Assembly: GCA_049511795.1 (NCBI GenBank)
Contig: JBEKXS010000001.1
Span: 1-32,000, forward strand
Source of the DNA: Candidatus Saccharimonadota bacterium
GTDB taxonomy: Archaea; Nanobdellota; Nanobdellia; Pacearchaeales; GW2011-AR1
Length of the DNA: 32,000 nucleotides
Reading direction: 5' to 3'
The position numbers and the translations under genes were made by a program. Under the pieces are notes generated by a model that made no database searches, was not told the origin of the DNA, and was given only the letters and a program-made list of their open reading frames with translations. Shown piece after piece: positions 7,635 through 26,014 of the stretch (the stretch's first letter is position 1; the number at the start of each line of letters is the position of its first letter).

Positions 7635-8144
7635 ATGAAATTGAAGCACGTTTTCAAAAAAGGAAGAGAGGTTACAACAAGGGAAGGCAGCTTTGTCATA
7701 AAACTAGCGAAAAAAATTGCTTCTGACATAAAACAATTCTGCAAAAAAATTGAAATTGGGGGAAGCATAAGAAGAAAATCAAAAAATCCTACAGATATTG
7801 ACATAATCCTTATACCAAAGAATGAAGGAAGCAAGAAAGAAATAGAGGAAGTTTTGTCAAGGAAAGGGAAAAGAGTTTTGGGTGGAGAGCAAAAAGCTTA
7901 TTTTAAGATAGATGGAGTTGAAACAGAGATTTATTACACGACTCCTGAAGAATGGGGTGCTGCTTTAATGGCCTATTCAAGTCCTTTTGGTGCTAGCATT
8001 GGCCTTCGTGTCATTGCAAGGGCAAAAGGATTCAAATTAAACCAGCATGGACTTTTCAAACACGGAAAAATGGTCGCTGGAAGAACAGAAGAGGAAATTT
8101 ACAAGGTGCTTGGAAGACCCTGGAAACCTCCGGAGAAGAGATAA
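7635..8144 (+). CDS. Minimal family X DNA polymerase / Pol beta-like nucleotidyltransferase (palm + thumb only)
   Basis: GGSIRRKSKNPTDIDIILIP matches the Pol X hG[GS]-x-RR...DxD motif. The C-terminus GFKLNQHGLFKHGKMVAGRTEEEIYKVLGRPWKPPEKR matches the Pol X thumb consensus (LN.YGLF ... E.EIF..LG..YI.PE.R). At 169 aa there is no room for the 8-kDa or fingers domains. Confidence 0.7.
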   Translation: MKLKHVFKKGREVTTREGSFVIKLAKKIASDIKQFCKKIEIGGSIRRKSKNPTDIDIILIPKNEGSKKEIEEVLSRKGKRVLGGEQKAYFKIDGVETEIYYTTPEEWGAALMAYSSPFGASIGLRVIARAKGFKLNQHGLFKHGKMVAGRTEEEIYKVLGRPWKPPEKR

Positions 8145-8150
8145 ATTAAA

Positions 8151-8633
8151 ATGAAATATGAACCAGCACCAGATTTGCAGAGAATAGCAGAAGAAATATC
8201 AAAGCTGCTTTTTCCTCATGTTCACATTGACAGAATGAGATGTTTTAGGAGCTATGGAACCAGCTCAAAAGGAACAATTGCAAGATGCCATACTGTTGGA
8301 AAGCTTTTGCAGCGTGCGATGAATGTAGAAGCTTTTTATGCCCTTGAATTTATTTCAGAGCGATTTGATAAGCTGTCAGAAGAGGAAAAAATAAAGACAA
8401 TAATTCATGAATTAATGCATATTCCACAGACTTTTGGCGGCGGATTCAGAAATCATGATCACGTTTGCGAAAGAAACGTAAATCGATGTTACAATGAATA
8501 CAAAGAAAAGAAAAAAATGGCTGAAGAAACAGATTTTTTGAAAATAAAGGAGTTAAAATGGAAAAATGAGGATAATGTTAAACAACTCAAAAACATAAGA
8601 AAAAATGCAAGTAAAAGTTGGTTTTCAATATAA
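8151..8633 (+). CDS. Putative zinc metallopeptidase (HExxH; COG4900-like predicted archaeal metallopeptidase)
   Basis: Starts 6 nt after the Pol X-like gene. It contains IIHELMHIPQTFGGGFRNHDH, an HExxH motif with a downstream His cluster. The overall pattern resembles the small archaeal/phage putative-metallopeptidase family. Confidence 0.6.
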   Translation: MKYEPAPDLQRIAEEISKLLFPHVHIDRMRCFRSYGTSSKGTIARCHTVGKLLQRAMNVEAFYALEFISERFDKLSEEEKIKTIIHELMHIPQTFGGGFRNHDHVCERNVNRCYNEYKEKKKMAEETDFLKIKELKWKNEDNVKQLKNIRKNASKSWFSI

Positions 8634-11404: not shown

Positions 11405-11596
11405 TTTTAATTCTGCAAAATTTCAAAAAATAACCCTGTTTTTCATGCAAAAAATGGTTTTATCGACGATAAAATCGGAAAAAGGTTTATAAACCAAGCT
11501 TTCGTTTTTCTGATATCATAGGGTAAAAAAGGACAGATTTTCTTGTCCAAAATTCACCAAAAACCTGAGAATTTAGCAAAAGCTTTCAAAAACAAA

Positions 11597-13489
11597 ATGG
11601 CAGACACAAAAGGAAGTAATAACTACACAGCAGCAGATATTAAGGTGCTTGAGGGCCTTGAAGGAGTAAGAAAAAGGCCTGCAATGTACATAGGAAGCAC
11701 TGGAAAAGATGGTTTGCATCATCTTGTTTATGAGGTAGTTGACAATTCTGTTGATGAAGCACTTGCAGGATACTGCAAAAAGATAGTTGTTACAATAAAT
11801 AAAGATGGTTCTGTGACAGTTATAGATGATGGCAGGGGAATTCCAGTAGATATGCATCCAACTTTGAAGATTCCTGCTGTTGAAGTTGCGCTTACAAAGC
11901 TTCATGCAGGCGGAAAATTCGATAAAAAAGCATATGTCATTTCAGGAGGATTGCATGGTGTTGGAGTCAGCGTTGTAAATGCATTATCAAAAAAGCTTGT
12001 TGTTGAAGTAAAACATGAGGGTAAAATCTATACACAAGAATATTCAAGAGGAATAACAAAAACAAAACTGAAAGAAAGCGGAAAATCAGAGGGAACAGGG
12101 ACAACAATCACTTTTTGGCCTGATGAAGAAATATTTTCTACTGTAGTTTTTGATTACAAAGTTCTTGAAAACAGGTTTAGGGAAATAACATTCTTAAATC
12201 CTGGATTGAAAATTCTTCTTGAAGATGAAGAAAAAGGAAAGAAAGAAGAATTTTATTCTTCTGGCGGGCTTATCGAGTTTGTAAAATGGCTTAACAAATC
12301 AAAAGAAGCTCTGCACAAGCCGATTTATTTCAAAAAAGAAATTGACCACAGTGTCATAGAAGCCGCAATACAGTACAACAACAGCTATCAGGAAAATATT
12401 TTCGGTTTTGTAAATACAATTAACACAATTGAAGGAGGAACTCATGTCTCTGGCTTCAAGACAGCTTTGACAAGAGTAATTAATGATTATGCAAAAAGCA
12501 AAGAGCTTATCAAAGGAGAATCTTTGCAGGGAGATGATGTTCGTGAAGGGCTTACAGCTATTATCAGCTTGAAAATGCAAGAGCCACAATTTGAAGGACA
12601 GACAAAAACAAAATTAGGCAACAGTGAGATGAAGGGTTTTGTTGATTCTGCTACAACTCAGGCACTTGGAGAATTTTTTGAGGAAAACCCTGGAATTGCA
12701 AGAATAATAACTGCAAAAGCACTTGACTCCGCGAAAGCAAGGCTTGCTGCGAAGAAAGCAAAAGACCTTGTAAGGAGAAAAAACGCTTTTTCTCTCGGAG
12801 GTTTGCCTGGAAAACTTGCAGACTGCTCTTCAAGAAAAACAGAAGACACAGAAATTTACATTGTAGAAGGTCTTTCAGCAGCAGGAACAGCTAAAGATGC
12901 AAGAAACAAGGAAATACAAGCTATTCTTCCATTAAAAGGAAAAATTCTAAACGTGGAGAAGTCAAGTCCTGTTCGTTCTCTTTCCAGCGAGGAAATTGCA
13001 AATTTAATAACAGCAATAGGAACAGGTGTTGGCGAGGATTTCAATGTTGAAAACCTGAGATACAATAAAATAATAATTATGTCTGATGCAGATGTTGATG
13101 GAGAGCACATCAAAACTCTTTTGCTTACTCTTTTCTATAGATTTATGCCGCAGCTTATTGAAGGCTCACATATTTACGTTGCTCTTCCTCCATTGTACAG
13201 GATAAGAAAAGGACAGAAAGACCAGTATGTTTACACTGATGAAGAATTGAAGAAAGAAGTCGGAAGCCCTGAAGGAAACAATGTCACAAGGTTCAAGGGT
13301 CTTGGAGAAATGTCATCACAGCAATTATGGGAAACAACAATGAATCCAAAGACAAGGAAAATAAAAAAGATTTTCATAGAAGATGCTGTTGAGGCAGACA
13401 GTGTTTTCACAATGCTGATGGGTGATGACGTGCAGGCAAGAAAACTTTTCATTCAAGAAAATGCAAAGGAGGCAAATCTTGATATCTAA
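11597..13489 (+). CDS. gyrB: DNA gyrase subunit B
   Basis: Motifs present: VLEGLEGVRKRPAMYIGS, HHLVYEVVDNSVDEA, DDGRGIPV, GGLHGVGVSVVNALS, QFEGQTKTKLGN, PLKGKILNVEK and IMSDADVDGEHI. The ORF track start is TTG at 11543. ATG 11597 gives a canonical N-terminus, but either start is possible. Confidence 0.93.
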   Translation: MADTKGSNNYTAADIKVLEGLEGVRKRPAMYIGSTGKDGLHHLVYEVVDNSVDEALAGYCKKIVVTINKDGSVTVIDDGRGIPVDMHPTLKIPAVEVALTKLHAGGKFDKKAYVISGGLHGVGVSVVNALSKKLVVEVKHEGKIYTQEYSRGITKTKLKESGKSEGTGTTITFWPDEEIFSTVVFDYKVLENRFREITFLNPGLKILLEDEEKGKKEEFYSSGGLIEFVKWLNKSKEALHKPIYFKKEIDHSVIEAAIQYNNSYQENIFGFVNTINTIEGGTHVSGFKTALTRVINDYAKSKELIKGESLQGDDVREGLTAIISLKMQEPQFEGQTKTKLGNSEMKGFVDSATTQALGEFFEENPGIARIITAKALDSAKARLAAKKAKDLVRRKNAFSLGGLPGKLADCSSRKTEDTEIYIVEGLSAAGTAKDARNKEIQAILPLKGKILNVEKSSPVRSLSSEEIANLITAIGTGVGEDFNVENLRYNKIIIMSDADVDGEHIKTLLLTLFYRFMPQLIEGSHIYVALPPLYRIRKGQKDQYVYTDEELKKEVGSPEGNNVTRFKGLGEMSSQQLWETTMNPKTRKIKKIFIEDAVEADSVFTMLMGDDVQARKLFIQENAKEANLDI

Positions 13490-13497
13490 AAACAAAA

Positions 13498-13731
13498 ATG
13501 AAACTGAAAATGAATTGTCCAAAGTGCGGTTCTGAGAAAATCAGCATAACATCTGATGAAAAAGACCCAACTCCTATGTACAAGTGCGCAAAATGCGGAT
13601 ACAAAGGAAGACTTTTTCCAAAGTTTGAAAGTGACAAGAATGTAACAGATGAAGAAGCTGACGAAGACGAACTTGGTGAAGACGAAGATGAGGAAGAATC
13701 AACTGAAGACGAAGAAACAACACAATTTTGA
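13498..13731 (+). CDS. Small zinc-ribbon protein with extreme acidic C-terminal tail
   Basis: ATG is 8 nt after the gyrB stop. The zinc ribbon is CPKC-x19-CAKC. The last roughly 30 residues are almost all D/E (DEEADEDELGEDEDEEESTEDEETTQF). Confidence 0.6.
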   Translation: MKLKMNCPKCGSEKISITSDEKDPTPMYKCAKCGYKGRLFPKFESDKNVTDEEADEDELGEDEDEEESTEDEETTQF

Positions 13732-13743
13732 GGAAAAACAATC

Positions 13744-14034
13744 ATGGGAAAACTGGCAACGCCTGAATGGATATTGAAAGGCTACAAATCAAAAGAAGAA
13801 TTCGACAGAAAAACAGGAAAGAAAACCAGCGGAAGCAGCAACAAAGGCGGAAAAACTTACAAAGTTAAAAAATGCCCAAAATGCGGAAGCACAAATGTTT
13901 CTGTTATTCTGGGACAGGAAGAAGGAAGGGGAAAGAGCGAGTGGGAATGCAAGAAATGCAAATGGGTAGGAAAAGATGTTGAGGAGAAGGAAGTTGGAGA
14001 AGAAGAATTTATGAAAATAGGAGAAGAAAAATGA
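13744..14034 (+). CDS. Small zinc-ribbon protein (basic N-terminal region, acidic C-terminal tail)
   Basis: GAGGA lies 9 nt upstream of the ATG. The zinc ribbon is CPKC-x20-CKKC. The N-terminus is Lys-rich and the tail is Glu-rich. It resembles the preceding ORF and may be a paralogue. Confidence 0.6.
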   Translation: MGKLATPEWILKGYKSKEEFDRKTGKKTSGSSNKGGKTYKVKKCPKCGSTNVSVILGQEEGRGKSEWECKKCKWVGKDVEEKEVGEEEFMKIGEEK

Positions 14035-14330
14035 AAGTCCACATTGGAAAAGTGACGCACTTAGAGGATTTTAAAAAACTAATAAAAATGAAAGAAGGAT
14101 TTAAAATAATTATTTTAGGAAATACTTATGAAATAGTAAAAATTGACTATGATGTTTATCCTAGGAATTGGAAGAAAAATGAAGATTACGAACTTGTTAA
14201 AAAATTTTTACTTCATGATACTGAAAGCTCTATGATTTTACCTACAGATCATCTTACAGAAGATTTGAGAGGAAACATTAAACTCAATGGAAAAAAAGTA
14301 AACAAGAGAGACATTAAATTATTAAAATGA
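14031..14330 (+). CDS. Hypothetical 99-aa protein in the gyrase operon
   Basis: It has ATGA start/stop overlaps with both neighbours (14031-14034 and 14327-14330). AGGAG lies 7 nt upstream. I recognised no family. Confidence 0.5.
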
Positions 14331-16801
14331 TAGATGAAAAAGAAGAAAAAGAAAAACAAGAAACAGAGAAACCAAATGAAAAAGGCGTTATTGACGCAGA
14401 AATCTCACAAGAGATGAAGAAAGCATATCTTGATTATGCAATGTCTGTTATTGTTGCCAGAGCGCTTCCAGCAATTGAAGATGGAATGAAGCCTGTTCAG
14501 AGAAGAATTCTTTATGCAATGAAAAGAGCTGGCATGACTTCTGACAAGCAGACAAAAAAATCAGTTGCTGTTGTCGGAGATGTTCTTAAGATGTATCACC
14601 CTCACGGGGATGTTGCTGTTTATGACGCTCTTGTAAGGATGGCACAGGATTTTACTCTTAGATACCCACTTATTTTCGGTCAGGGAAATTTTGGAAGTAT
14701 TGATGGAGATCCTCCTGCTGCATATAGGTATACAGAAGCAAAGCTTGCGCAGATATCTGAAGATTTGCTTGAAGACATTGACAAAAATACTGTTAACATG
14801 ATTCCTAATTTTGATAATTCAACAAAAGAGCCAGAGCTTCTTCCTGGAAAGCTTCCTGCTTTGATGCTGAATGGTGCTTCAGGAATTGCAGTTGGAATGG
14901 CGACAAATATTCCTCCGCATAATTTGACAGAAGTTTGCGATGCAATAACAGAATACATAAAAAATCCGGAAACAAGCATTGAAGAGCTTGCAAAGATTGT
15001 CACAGGTCCTGATTTTCCGACAGGTGGATATGTTTCAGGAGACATGCTTGAACTTTACAAGACAGGAAGAGGGCAAATGATTCTTAGGGGAAAGACAACA
15101 ACAGAAACAATAAGGAACAAGGAAGCAATAGTTATTACAGAAATTCCATACATGCTTAACAAATCAGATTTGGTGACGCAGATTGCAGATATGATTCAGA
15201 AGAAAAAAATTGGAGACATTTATGATTTAAGGGATGAAAGCTCAAAAGGAAAAATAAGAATTGTTGTAGAGCTTAAGAAAGGTGCAAATCCAAAAATGGT
15301 TACAAATGCGCTTTACAAATATACAAGGCTTCAGGATTCTTTCAATGTTAATTTCCTTGCGCTTGTAAAAGGCCAGCCACGTGTGCTCAATTTGAAGGAA
15401 GTTGTGAAAGAGTATGTTGAATATAGAAAAAAGATAATTACAAACAGGACAAAATTCGATTTGAAAAAGGCACAGGAAAGGCAGGAAATTGTTCTTGGCC
15501 TTATTATTGCCTTGAAGAACATAGATGATGTTATTTCAACGATAAAGAAATCAAAAAACACAACAGAAGCAACAGATTCTCTTATGAGCAAGTTTAAGCT
15601 TACAAAAAATCAGGCTCAGGCTGTTTTGGATACAAAGCTTCATCAGTTGACAACACTAGAACAGGACAAGCTGAAAAAAGAAGAGAATGAGCTAAAGACA
15701 GAAATCGAAGAATTAAAGAAAATACTTGCTGATATCAAGGAAATTCTGAGAGTTATTTTGAAGGAAGTTTCTGAAATGAAGAGAAATTACGGAGATAACA
15801 GAAGAACATATGTTCTGCAAAAGATTTCTGAAATTTCTGAAAAAGATGTCATACAGAAAAAAGAAGTTGTTGTAACAATAACTGACAAAGGATATTGCAA
15901 GAGAATGGACATTCAGTCATACAAGGAACAGAAAAGAGGAGGAAAAGGAAGTATTGGAAGCAATCTTGCAACAGGAGATTTTGTAAAACAATTGATAACA
16001 TGCTCAACGCACGATTACATGATGTTTTTCACCACAAAAGGCAGAGTTCTCTGGCTAAAGGCTTATGATATTCCTGAAACAGAAAAATACAGCAAGGGAA
16101 AAGCACTTGCAAATCTTTTAAGTCTCAAGGATGAAAGCGTTGCTAATGTTATTTCAGTGAATAAGTTTGAGGATTCTTTGTTTATGGTAACAAAGCTTGG
16201 AGTTGTCAAGAAAACGCCATTGGATAATTTCTCAAGCCCAAGAGCTTCTGGAATAAAAGCAATTAATCTTCCTGAAGACAATACAGACACGCTTATTGGA
16301 GTCCAAGTTGTTAAGAAAGGTGAGGAAGTTCTTTTAGCTACAAAAAAAGGACAGGCAATAAAATTTGATGCAGACGATGTTCGTGACATGGGAAGAGCAA
16401 GCTATGGTGTTGCTGGAATAAAGCTAGAGAAAGGAGATGAAGTTGTTAGCTTGGAAGTTTTGAAGAGCGAATCAATTCTTACAATAACAAGAAATGGCTA
16501 TGGAAAAAGAACAGAAGTAAAAGATTACAGAAAAACAGCGAGAGCTGGAAAAGGAGTAATTAACCTAAAAGTTTCTGACAAAACAGGAGATGTTGTGACG
16601 ACTGTTTCTGTAAATCCTGAAGATTCAATAATTATCACAACTGCAAAAGGACTCGTTATGAGAACTTCTTTGAAAAATATAAGAATAATGGGAAGAGCTG
16701 CGCAAGGAGTCAGAATTGTAAAGCTTGCGCCAGGCGATACTGTTACAGATTTAGTTCGTGTTGTTGAAGACACAAATGGGAATGGAGAAGAGAAAAAATA
16801 A
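14327..16801 (+). CDS. gyrA: DNA gyrase subunit A
   Basis: Motifs present: SVIVARALP...[20 protein letters not shown], the active-site region [10 protein letters not shown], and C-terminal beta-pinwheel repeats. The protein is 824 aa. Confidence 0.93.
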
Positions 16802-23744: not shown

Positions 23745-23795
23745 CTCTCTTATTCAGAATAAAACACGAAGATTATATAAATTTTATGAAGACAA

Positions 23796-23876
23796 CGCCC
23801 CAACCAGGACTCGAACCTGGATGCCATTTCTGGCCGAGATTTCCAATCTCGCGCAGTACCCTTGTGCCATTGGGGC
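23796..23876 (-). tRNA. tRNA-Ser (anticodon GGA), type II with long variable arm, no encoded CCA
   Basis: I folded the reverse complement GCCCCAA-TG-GCAC..TGC-G-CGAGA-TTGGAAA-TCTCG-GCCAGAAATGGCAT-CCAGG-TTCGAGT-CCTGG-TTGGGGC-G by hand. The acceptor stem is 7 bp, the anticodon and T stems are perfect 5-bp helices, and the anticodon loop UUGGAAA gives GGA. The variable arm is 14 nt. Confidence 0.85.
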
Positions 23877-23897
23877 ACGAGATTAATTCATTTGAGA

Positions 23898-25942: not shown

Positions 25943-26014
25943 GCTCACGTGGTCTAACGGCTATGACGCTAGCCTGTCGCGCTGGAAACCCGGGTCCGAT
26001 TCCCGGCGTGGGCG
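25943..26014 (+). tRNA. tRNA-Asp (anticodon GUC), no encoded CCA
   Basis: My hand fold is GCTCACG-TG-GTCT..TGAC-G-CTAGC-CTGTCGC-GCTGG-AAAC-CCGGG-TCCGATT-CCCGG-CGTGGGC-G. The acceptor stem is 7 bp with one G.U pair, and the anticodon loop CUGUCGC gives GUC. TATA-like TTTAAAAA lies about 27 nt upstream. Confidence 0.85.

Follow-up and report, generated by a model that had tools for sequence, protein, structure and literature searches.

We propose that a 96-amino-acid (aa) zinc-ribbon protein encoded between the DNA gyrase genes gyrB and gyrA of a DPANN archaeon is a clade-specific gyrase accessory factor produced from the gyrBA transcript. We assign this reading, in which the functional link is drawn from genomic context, a probability of about one half. 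The gene, here called ORF2, lies in the first 32,000 nucleotides (nt) of contig JBEKXS010000001.1 (this whole stretch is referred to below as the window), where it is the second of three small open reading frames (ORF1 to ORF3) in the gap between gyrB and gyrA (Table 1). Its family is best explained as a previously undescribed group of zinc-ribbon proteins that is specific to Pacearchaeota- and Woesearchaeota-type DPANN archaea and fixed in the gyrB-gyrA unit. An initial annotation, made from the sequence of the window, had grouped all three small genes as possible accessory or regulatory subunits of gyrase. For ORF2 that idea stands up well to the synteny check proposed with it, in that every readable homolog lies in the gap, as would fit a gyrase-linked accessory protein. 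The three genes do not behave as one unit: ORF2 is constant, ORF1 is an optional, apparent paralog of it, and ORF3 is an orphan whose place is taken by another gene in the closest relatives. The mechanistic analogies offered at the time, to the gyrase inhibitor YacG and to DNA mimics, find no support.

ORF2 homologs are confined to the gap between gyrB and gyrA

A word-indexed search of 5.8 billion proteins with the small ORFs returned 81 homologs of ORF2 at 40–92% identity, nearly all of them unnamed, which were collected in a family alignment (A1). Among the long contigs that were looked up, the homolog lay between gyrB and gyrA and on the same strand in seven of seven. When genomes sampled at one per species were scanned with this alignment, at least 153 relatives came up, and tblastn was used to place gyrB and gyrA around ORF2 in the best 80 of them: 78 of these 80 genome loci have the three genes on one strand, with gyrB upstream of ORF2 and gyrA downstream of it, and the other two were cut by contig ends. 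The reverse sample consisted of 80 metagenome loci picked solely on similarity to the C-terminal half of GyrB. Fifty-five carried ORF2 after gyrB (45 with gyrA also in view), 13 had gyrB and gyrA without ORF2, and 12 were uninformative; hence ORF2 was present in 55 of the 68 informative loci.

Context was read over 5–6 kb around each locus, and a profile scan for gap-restricted families covered 1.36 Mb of DNA from related loci. In this DNA all 140 ORF2-type profile matches fell in the gyrB-gyrA gap, and the flanks had none; the few that had been flagged as outside are open frames that start either at a contig end or within gyrB at its 3′ end. ORF2-type genes were found in 138 loci, representing 127 distinct sequences. 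With a single exception, the loci examined each have one copy of ORF2, at the same place and in the same orientation.

The presence of ORF2 follows the relationships of GyrB. In a neighbor-joining tree of the GyrB C-terminal half, which is indicative, being midpoint-rooted (in substance unrooted) and without bootstrap support, 109 ORF2-bearing tips formed one clade and 14 ORF2-lacking tips formed a separate clade that an ORF2-bearing locus (L146) adjoins. The 14 were the 13 ORF2-less metagenome loci, which have the lowest GyrB identities (66–71%) in the GyrB-selected set, and L163, which was scored as ORF2-less and carries only a short ORF1-type ribbon with a weak ribbon match. Within the ORF2-bearing clade the gene is kept at 100%, despite turnover of the gap and inserts on both sides of it.

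The names of identical database proteins place the window in a Candidatus Pacearchaeota metagenome-assembled genome. Genomes carrying ORF2 are labeled Pacearchaeota, Woesearchaeota, Nanoarchaeota, or simply archaeon, apart from one 'Diapherotrites' and one 'Omnitrophota'. The latter contig (DATJPO010000030.1, 'Candidatus Omnitrophota bacterium', our locus L063) has the full gyrB-ORF2-gyrA arrangement, and since the C-terminal half of its GyrB is 74% identical to that of the window, we read its label as that of a mis-binned DPANN contig. One further ORF2 homolog (P0036) is labeled as a Patescibacteria group bacterium.

Sequence, predicted fold, and selection of ORF2

The family is small and compact. 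When 1.84 billion representative proteins were searched exhaustively with the family profile, only 86 matched, and all 81 members of A1 are 80–133 aa long without any further domain. The metal site of the window's ORF2, first reported as CPKC-x20-CKKC, reads CPKC-x21-CKKC by direct count. Residues C44, P45, C47, W67, C69, C72, W74, and G76 are invariant in A1, and the ribbon carries the motif E-W-E-C-K-x-C-x-W-x-G. Conservation extends outside the ribbon, where K3, T6, P7, W9, G13, E86, E88, and F89 are at least 90% conserved, as is the N-terminal motif K-L-x-T-P-[DE]-W-[IV]-x-x-G. A Lys-rich linker, modeled with low confidence and tolerant of insertions across the family, separates this motif from the ribbon, and the family ends in a conserved C-terminus, E-E-L-x-E-E-E-F-M-K-Y-L-D-E-K-G-E-E-V-A, whose acidic helix contains E-E-F (EEFMK...). 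The window's ORF2 has every one of these elements (TP[D/E]W[IV], basic linker, C4 ribbon, and acidic EEF helix), with a C-terminus that is a shortened variant of the family consensus EEFMKYLDEKGEEVA. Conservation laid out in this way outside the ribbon is what one would expect if the protein had several contact sites for a partner. The protein is basic overall (isoelectric point, pI, 9.1; family median net charge +3) and its charge is laid out in a bipolar manner, with +4 in the linker, +4 in the ribbon, and −5 in the C-terminal tail.

An AlphaFold2 model of ORF2 (mean predicted local distance difference test, pLDDT, 72) consists of two short N-terminal helices, the linker, four strands (residues 38–43, 52–55, 66–69, and 80–85), and a C-terminal helix. 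As modeled, ORF2 belongs to the zinc-ribbon structural class, on the strength of its two CxxC knuckles and of weak Foldseek and Pfam matches that are all ribbons. Closer relatives were not recovered from Pfam or the PDB: a profile search of PDB sequences gave nothing below E 0.2, a Foldseek search of the model against the PDB gave generic ribbons only, with a best E of 0.09, and the weak Pfam and NCBIfam matches of the window's ORF1 and ORF2 are all generic ribbons below the curated cut-offs. Across all 81 ORF2 family members the best Pfam E-values are ~1e-5, and the automated names attached to a few of them conflict ('transposase', 'Elf1', 'DUF1610'). PHROG and PADLOC scans gave nothing informative for ORF1, ORF2, or ORF3.

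Ratios of nonsynonymous to synonymous substitution (dN/dS), computed against the two closest relatives of the window (88% and 83% nucleotide identity), were 0.06–0.08 for ORF2 versus 0.04–0.14 for gyrB and gyrA, and 0.12–0.13 for ORF1. ORF1 and ORF2 are genuine genes under purifying selection and not chance ORFs. Together, the gyrase-exclusive position of ORF2, its selection at the level of gyrase, the grouping of its carriers in the GyrB tree, and the conserved motifs tethered to its ribbon make an accessory factor the best explanation for this gene. We also count in favor of this reading a principle that Dandekar and colleagues are said to have put forward in 1998, namely that conserved gene order within the operon of a heteromeric enzyme predicts physical interaction. 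ORF2 is a strong but unproven candidate for a gyrase partner that would bind the enzyme physically.

ORF1 appears to be an optional short paralog of ORF2

Only four close homologs of ORF1 besides itself were found among the 5.8 billion proteins, and distant short ribbons were added from related loci and from the exhaustive search, giving an alignment of 26 ORF1-type proteins (A2) in which C7, C10, C30, C33, F40, and P41 are invariant. The cysteine pattern of the window's ORF1 is CPKC-x19-CAKC, as first described. The relationship of the two ribbons that was claimed from the sequence is borne out by the alignments of both families: hhalign aligned A1 and A2 with a probability of 98% (E 6e-14), a result that is partly circular because some A2 members were drawn from the A1 search, and the window's ORF1 alone scores 20 bits against the A1 profile. 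By these comparisons ORF1 and ORF2 appear to be homologous, with ORF1 as the short paralog.

ORF1-type ribbons occur in ~20% of loci, and all 34 of their matches in the 1.36 Mb of related DNA lie within the gyrB-gyrA gap. Several loci of the ORF2-lacking clade have a basic-tailed ORF1-type ribbon as the sole small gene between gyrB and gyrA. The tail of the window's ORF1, which had been called almost purely D/E, has these residues at 19 of 32 positions (59%; residues 46–77); it is acidic, and the whole protein has a net charge of −13 and a pI of 4.2. A long D/E tail ending in EET[TED]QF (EETTQF in the window) is restricted to the window and the four closest homologs, the other proteins in A2 having tails of 4–15 residues or basic ones. 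Within ORF1, dN/dS was 0.28 for the tail versus 0.06 for the ribbon, indicating that the tail evolves faster. Among distant relatives from the exhaustive search, three longer proteins (P0122, 432 aa; P0153, 273 aa; P0148, 176 aa) contain two to four tandem ORF1-like ribbons, each followed by a short helix, and one of the three carries a C-terminal membrane region.

ORF3 and the turnover of the gap

ORF3 is unrelated cargo in an operon slot that turns over freely. It matched only itself among the 5.8 billion proteins, had no tblastn match in 90 related loci, and had no match of any weight in Pfam, NCBIfam, PHROG, or PADLOC, in keeping with the initial statement that it belongs to no recognized family. 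Nucleotide homology to the two closest relatives covers gyrB, ORF1, and ORF2, ends at position 14036, and resumes at 14314 inside gyrA; in the slot of ORF3 these relatives have an unrelated gene of 132–133 aa that resembles Nuc_deoxyrib_tr. The possibility that ORF3 is a decayed form of that gene was rejected, as blastn and tblastx found no meaningful similarity. The G+C content of ORF3 is 25.7%, versus 36–40% in its neighbors, its coding status rests solely on 99 uninterrupted codons in 26% G+C DNA, and a single-sequence AlphaFold2 model was unusable (pLDDT 40).

In 84 ORF2-bearing loci the gyrB-gyrA spacer was 294 nt at its shortest, with ORF2 alone, and 4184 nt at its longest, with seven genes, and the inserted ORFs fell into 57 clusters, 42 of them singletons. 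The inserts include cytidylyltransferase-like proteins (13 loci), a membrane-anchored Cys-rich protein (13), HD (10), NUDIX (7), DUF1653 (6), deoxyribosyltransferase-like (6), tRNA-binding (4), HAD (4), PNPOx (3), and NYN (2) proteins. SIS proteins are also found among them, and many of the inserts are tied to nucleotide metabolism (NUDIX, HD, cytidylyltransferase-like, deoxyribosyltransferase-like, and HAD). Cargo genes can precede or follow ORF2 and are set at a median spacing of 1 nt. Because unrelated inserts are packed as tightly as ORF2, stop/start overlaps are a trait of these genomes and weak evidence of functional coupling, and because the gap is a hot spot of gene insertion, position alone proves little.

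A second gap-restricted family, which we call the acidic module, is absent from the window. These small, strongly acidic proteins (55–120 aa) have poly-D/E stretches on both sides of a core motif similar to EISLSDEEIxEWIxKLxxLKExKExIxLEIDDENELLINY, and they have no Pfam match. All 33 profile matches in the 1.36 Mb lie in the gyrB-gyrA gap, usually directly 3′ of the ORF2 homolog (for example L007:6345-6554, L009:6346-6546, L032:6312-6617, and L170:5726-5959). The module is the sole gene between gyrB and gyrA in the ORF2-less locus L170, and it is fused to an ORF2 homolog in P0098.

Organization of the locus and its neighborhood

The five-gene layout described in the initial annotation, with gaps of 8 nt between gyrB and ORF1 and 12 nt between ORF1 and ORF2 followed by ATGA overlaps at ORF2/ORF3 and ORF3/gyrA, was confirmed in the sequence. 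In the NCBI annotation two of the genes are shorter, ORF1 beginning at M5 (73 aa) and ORF3 at M20 (80 aa). The longer ORF1 start is supported because MK[LV]K[MI]xCP is kept among the homologs; a start of ORF3 at M20 would make the overlap with ORF2 vanish. We infer that the five genes are cotranscribed. The element TTTATAAA upstream of gyrB is a possible promoter of the gyrB-to-gyrA unit, and the unit should end at gyrA, whose 3′ neighbor lies on the opposite strand. That neighbor encodes a 279-aa protein with a hydrophobic N-terminus and no Pfam match, and 16 of 49 related genome loci have a homolog of it downstream of gyrA.

Table 1 Features of the window
Feature	Position	Strand	Remarks
DNA_pol_B_thumb protein, then PhageMetallopep domain protein	7635–8633	+	Putative phage metallopeptidase domain in the second protein
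Candidate archaeal TATA box TTTATAAA	11486–11493	+	Read from the sequence, in the 138-nt spacer between L24e and gyrB; possible promoter
gyrB	11543–13489	+	Complete, intein-free; TAA stop; Pfam HATPase_c, DNA_gyraseB, Toprim, and DNA_gyraseB_C above curated cut-offs
ORF1, 77 aa	13498–13731	+	Short C4 zinc ribbon with lineage-specific acidic tail; apparent optional ORF2 paralog
ORF2, 96 aa	13744–14034	+	Predicted zinc-ribbon protein; constant element between gyrB and gyrA
ORF3, 99 aa (80 aa from M20)	14031–14330	+	AT-rich orphan in the variable slot between ORF2 and gyrA; outside the conserved module
gyrA	14327–16801	+	Complete, intein-free; Pfam DNA_topoisoIV and six DNA_gyraseA_C blades; GyrA-box-like KRGGKG
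ORF, 279 aa	16806–17645	−	Convergent with gyrA
tRNA-Ser(GGA)	23795–23877	−	ARAGORN
tRNA-Asp(GTC)	25943–26014	+	ARAGORN; the only one of the two tRNAs found by Rfam at the gathering threshold

The gene order TsaD-L7Ae-S28e-L24e-gyrB...gyrA-(eIF2-gamma, S6e) is conserved in 43–70% of loci: 33 of 47 retain L24e upstream, and 21 of 49 retain eIF2-gamma downstream. In many relatives GyrB (~1060 aa) and/or GyrA (~1260 aa, LAGLIDADG_3) contain inteins, and in many a free-standing LAGLIDADG_2 gene lies immediately upstream of gyrB (examples are L001:1563-5757, L003:3019-10147, L007:2511-5690, and L010:1412-10632). The DNA_pol_B_thumb and PhageMetallopep genes of the window also occur as a pair upstream of the gyrase neighborhood in L005 and L006, and the metallopeptidase in L009; this recurrence makes them look like a conserved cellular gene pair and not a prophage.

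Alternative explanations

Several observations weigh against a gyrase-linked role for ORF2. Loci with more divergent GyrB have gyrB and gyrA 50–107 nt apart with no small gene between them, which means that gyrase has no intrinsic need of ORF2. Among the 86 matches in the 1.84 billion representatives there is no natural fusion of the ORF2 domain to GyrA or GyrB, the only fusions seen being those to the acidic module (P0098) and of tandem ribbons (P0122 and P0153). The C-terminal half of GyrB has no indel, and only one conservative I/V position, that separates the ORF2-bearing and ORF2-lacking clades, and the GyrA C-terminal tail is alike in length and charge in both. The predicted ORF2 fold is that of a generic zinc ribbon, more often a nucleic-acid-binding module. 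Unrelated housekeeping genes share the gap at equally tight packing, making position and coupling unspecific, and gene order around gyrase is fairly conserved in the clade anyway (L24e in ~70%). A compensating change in the ORF2-lacking clade, in the form of a longer or more acidic GyrA tail, was considered and rejected, as no difference was found.

Some of these points would suit a general nucleic-acid-binding ribbon, acting in transcription, translation, or chromatin, whose position reflects operon inertia in compact DPANN genomes, the main rival explanation, which we consider possible though somewhat unlikely. The neighbors of ORF2 are informational genes that are themselves conserved, the gap has accepted many unrelated housekeeping genes, and gyrase works without ORF2 in the loci with divergent GyrB; the protein itself is basic and Lys-rich, and its sub-threshold matches are to Elf1, TFIIS, IS1595, and PaaD ribbons. 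Inertia accounts less well for the complete retention of ORF2, which exceeds that of any flanking gene despite inserts on both sides, for the lack of any copy outside the gap in 1.36 Mb, and for the clustering of ORF2-bearing loci in the GyrB tree apart from ORF2-less ones. The ORF1-type ribbons and the acidic module are likewise confined to the gap, which argues for functions tied to the locus. An origin as remnants that mobile elements left in a recombination hot spot, for example from a homing-endonuclease accessory or the N-terminal ribbon of a transposase of the IS1595/IS1 type, would also place a ribbon here, and Zn_ribbon_IS1595 is indeed the commonest weak Pfam match (64 of 81 members), some databases call members 'transposase', and the locus of relatives is rich in inteins and LAGLIDADG genes, in a gap that turns over. 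We nevertheless regard this origin as highly improbable: the matches of the window's ORF1 and ORF2 are below the cut-offs, only one member (P0081) has a precomputed match, a weak one, and no catalytic domain is present, while purifying selection is strong, ORF2 is single-copy and uniformly placed and oriented, with one locus as the exception, and the grouping of its carriers in the GyrB tree fits vertical inheritance.

Inhibition of gyrase by either ribbon is a quite unlikely role. In this case ORF2 and/or ORF1 would act like YacG, docking on GyrB, inserting a Trp, and blocking DNA binding as a reversible inhibitor or protector. ORF2 shares with YacG its small size, a C4 zinc site, conserved Trp residues (invariant W67 and W74, and W9 in at least 90%), and conserved elements outside the metal site, but homology to YacG is lacking, the metal-site spacing differs, and YacG was retrieved neither by Foldseek nor by the PDB profile search; moreover, a constitutive inhibitor co-translated at levels like those of its target would be counterproductive. 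Lower still is the probability that we give to the acidic tails acting in trans, either mimicking DNA or standing in for the acidic tail of E. coli GyrA, so as to compete with DNA on the GyrA C-terminal domain and tune wrapping. The strong negative charge of the window's ORF1 and the conserved acidic helix that ends ORF2 homologs are compatible with this, and the GyrA of this clade has only a few residues past its last blade, so that it is without a long acidic tail in cis; the acidic module, seen only in the gap in 33 related loci and fused to an ORF2 homolog in P0098, adds a little support. Against it, only the window's ORF1 and its four closest homologs have the long D/E tail, which evolves faster than the ribbon, the whole of ORF2 is basic, GyrA tails do not differ with the presence of ORF2, and neither pentapeptide repeats nor another structured DNA-mimic signature was found in the ORFs.

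Proposed role of ORF2 and its implications

If ORF2 is a gyrase accessory factor, as we propose, it would be made from the same mRNA as GyrB and GyrA. Its Lys-rich linker and basic ribbon may contact DNA or an acidic surface of the enzyme, and the tethered TP[D/E]W motif and the acidic amphipathic C-terminal helix may dock on the GyrB/GyrA core, whereby ORF2 would tune DNA binding, DNA wrapping, or assembly of the holoenzyme. We favor a bridging or modulating effect over inhibition because a co-translated constitutive inhibitor would defeat its own purpose and because ORF2 is basic and not DNA-like. ORF1 would then be a trimmed ribbon paralog that serves as a second copy in some lineages, with its long acidic tail probably gained in the lineage of the window.

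Gyrase is normally viewed as a self-sufficient A2B2 enzyme, and its known protein partners (YacG, GyrI, MfpA/Qnr, and toxins) are bacterial; we know of no gyrase partner that is encoded inside the gyrase operon. A bolder form of our proposal, which we hold to be doubtful, makes ORF2 a stoichiometric third subunit or obligatory cofactor that bridges GyrB, GyrA, and DNA and alters activity (wrapping, supercoiling set-point, or assembly), with the ORF1-type ribbons and the acidic module as optional, swappable partners. Were this true, a gyrase holoenzyme would for the first time be seen to have a dedicated additional subunit whose gene lies within the gyrBA operon. For the accessory factor that we prefer, a gene locked between gyrB and gyrA in well over 100 DPANN species under selection at the level of gyrase offers a concrete candidate modulator or subunit specific to the lineage, at a time when the acquisition and use of gyrase by archaea is an open question (Villain et al. 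2022, PMC9348778). With 96 residues ORF2 should express in E. coli, and its strict synteny yields ready-paired alignments. The hot-spot nature of the gap is in turn a caution against reading function from position alone.

Comparison with known systems

The closest parallel is YacG, which is proteobacterial and whose gene lies away from gyrA and gyrB, outside the gyrase operon, whereas ORF2 is archaeal and inside the gyrBA unit. Both are small (~65–100 aa) four-Cys zinc proteins with conserved Trp and with elements outside the metal site (YacG structures PDB 1LV3 and 4TMA). Their fold classes differ, ORF2 being a predicted two-knuckle zinc ribbon with four strands, and so does the Cys spacing, which is C-x2-C-x15-C-x3-C in YacG, C-x2-C-x19-C-x2-C in ORF1, and C-x2-C-x21-C-x2-C in ORF2. 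Homology of ORF2 to YacG/DUF329 was rejected: hhalign gave a probability of 7.5% over 10 columns, covering the CPxCG knuckle only, and YacG was not among the results for ORF2 from Foldseek, the PDB profile search, or the Pfam and NCBIfam scans. The E. coli YacG sequence compared here matches PDB 4TMA chain I exactly. YacG is described as stress-induced and as relying on a zinc finger, a Trp residue that is critical, and a C-terminal tail reaching across GyrB and GyrA; no other zinc-binding protein partner of gyrase is well described (PMC10886550).

The same comparison with human ELOF1 (verified against PDB 8B3D_M, full-length, E 1.7e-56) gave a probability of 1.1%, and the Elf1 identity suggested by database names and weak Pfam matches was rejected. 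The window's ORF2 scores 14.8 bits against Elf1 PF05129 (cut-off 29.8) and 17.9 bits against NCBIfam PRK14892 (cut-off 109), although its layout of basic N-terminal region, ribbon, and acidic C-terminus is Elf1-like. Against the IS1595/IS1 ribbon PF12760 it scores 20.3 bits (cut-off 25.4); 64 of the 81 family members match this Zn_ribbon_IS1595 profile at E up to 0.01, with a best value of 1.3e-5, and none has a transposase catalytic domain. Like ORF2, the generic ribbons that came up in these searches (Zn_ribbon_IS1595, Zn_ribbon_Elf1, Zn_ribbon_PaaD, Lar, and TFIIS, and the Rpb2 C-terminal ribbon by Foldseek) have two CxxC knuckles, beta-hairpins, and basic residues around the knuckles. These families lack the TP[D/E]W N-terminal motif, the EEFMKYLDEKGEEVA C-terminus, and the linkage to gyrase, all of which the ORF2 family has.

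The ORF1 tail and the acidic module resemble MfpA/Qnr, the phage protein Igy, and the acidic tail of E. coli GyrA in being strongly negative, and they are encoded beside gyrase. They differ from mimics of the MfpA/Qnr type in having no pentapeptide repeats or predicted rigid DNA-like surface, and the ORF1 tail is not conserved in its family. No pentapeptide family appeared among the Pfam and NCBIfam matches of the ORFs at E up to 1, and their sequences show no five-residue periodicity. The DNA-mimic idea finds little support in ORF2, which is basic, or in an acidic tail that is found only among the nearest relatives of the window.

The initial annotation knew of no described archaeal gyrase partners of this kind, and our literature search found none either, nor any account of a gene that separates gyrB from gyrA in archaea. 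A 2024 review of the protein partners of gyrase includes none that is archaeal and none that is operon-encoded (PMC10886550), and a survey of archaeal gyrases makes no mention of any gene lying between those of the two subunits (Villain et al. 2022, PMC9348778). According to the same survey, most Woesearchaeota and Pacearchaeota have gyrase, and in other Archaea gyrB precedes gyrA on one strand in a putative operon. Compared with those gyrBA operons, the ORF2-bearing clade always has at least an ORF2 homolog between the two genes, with a minimum spacer of ~294 nt.

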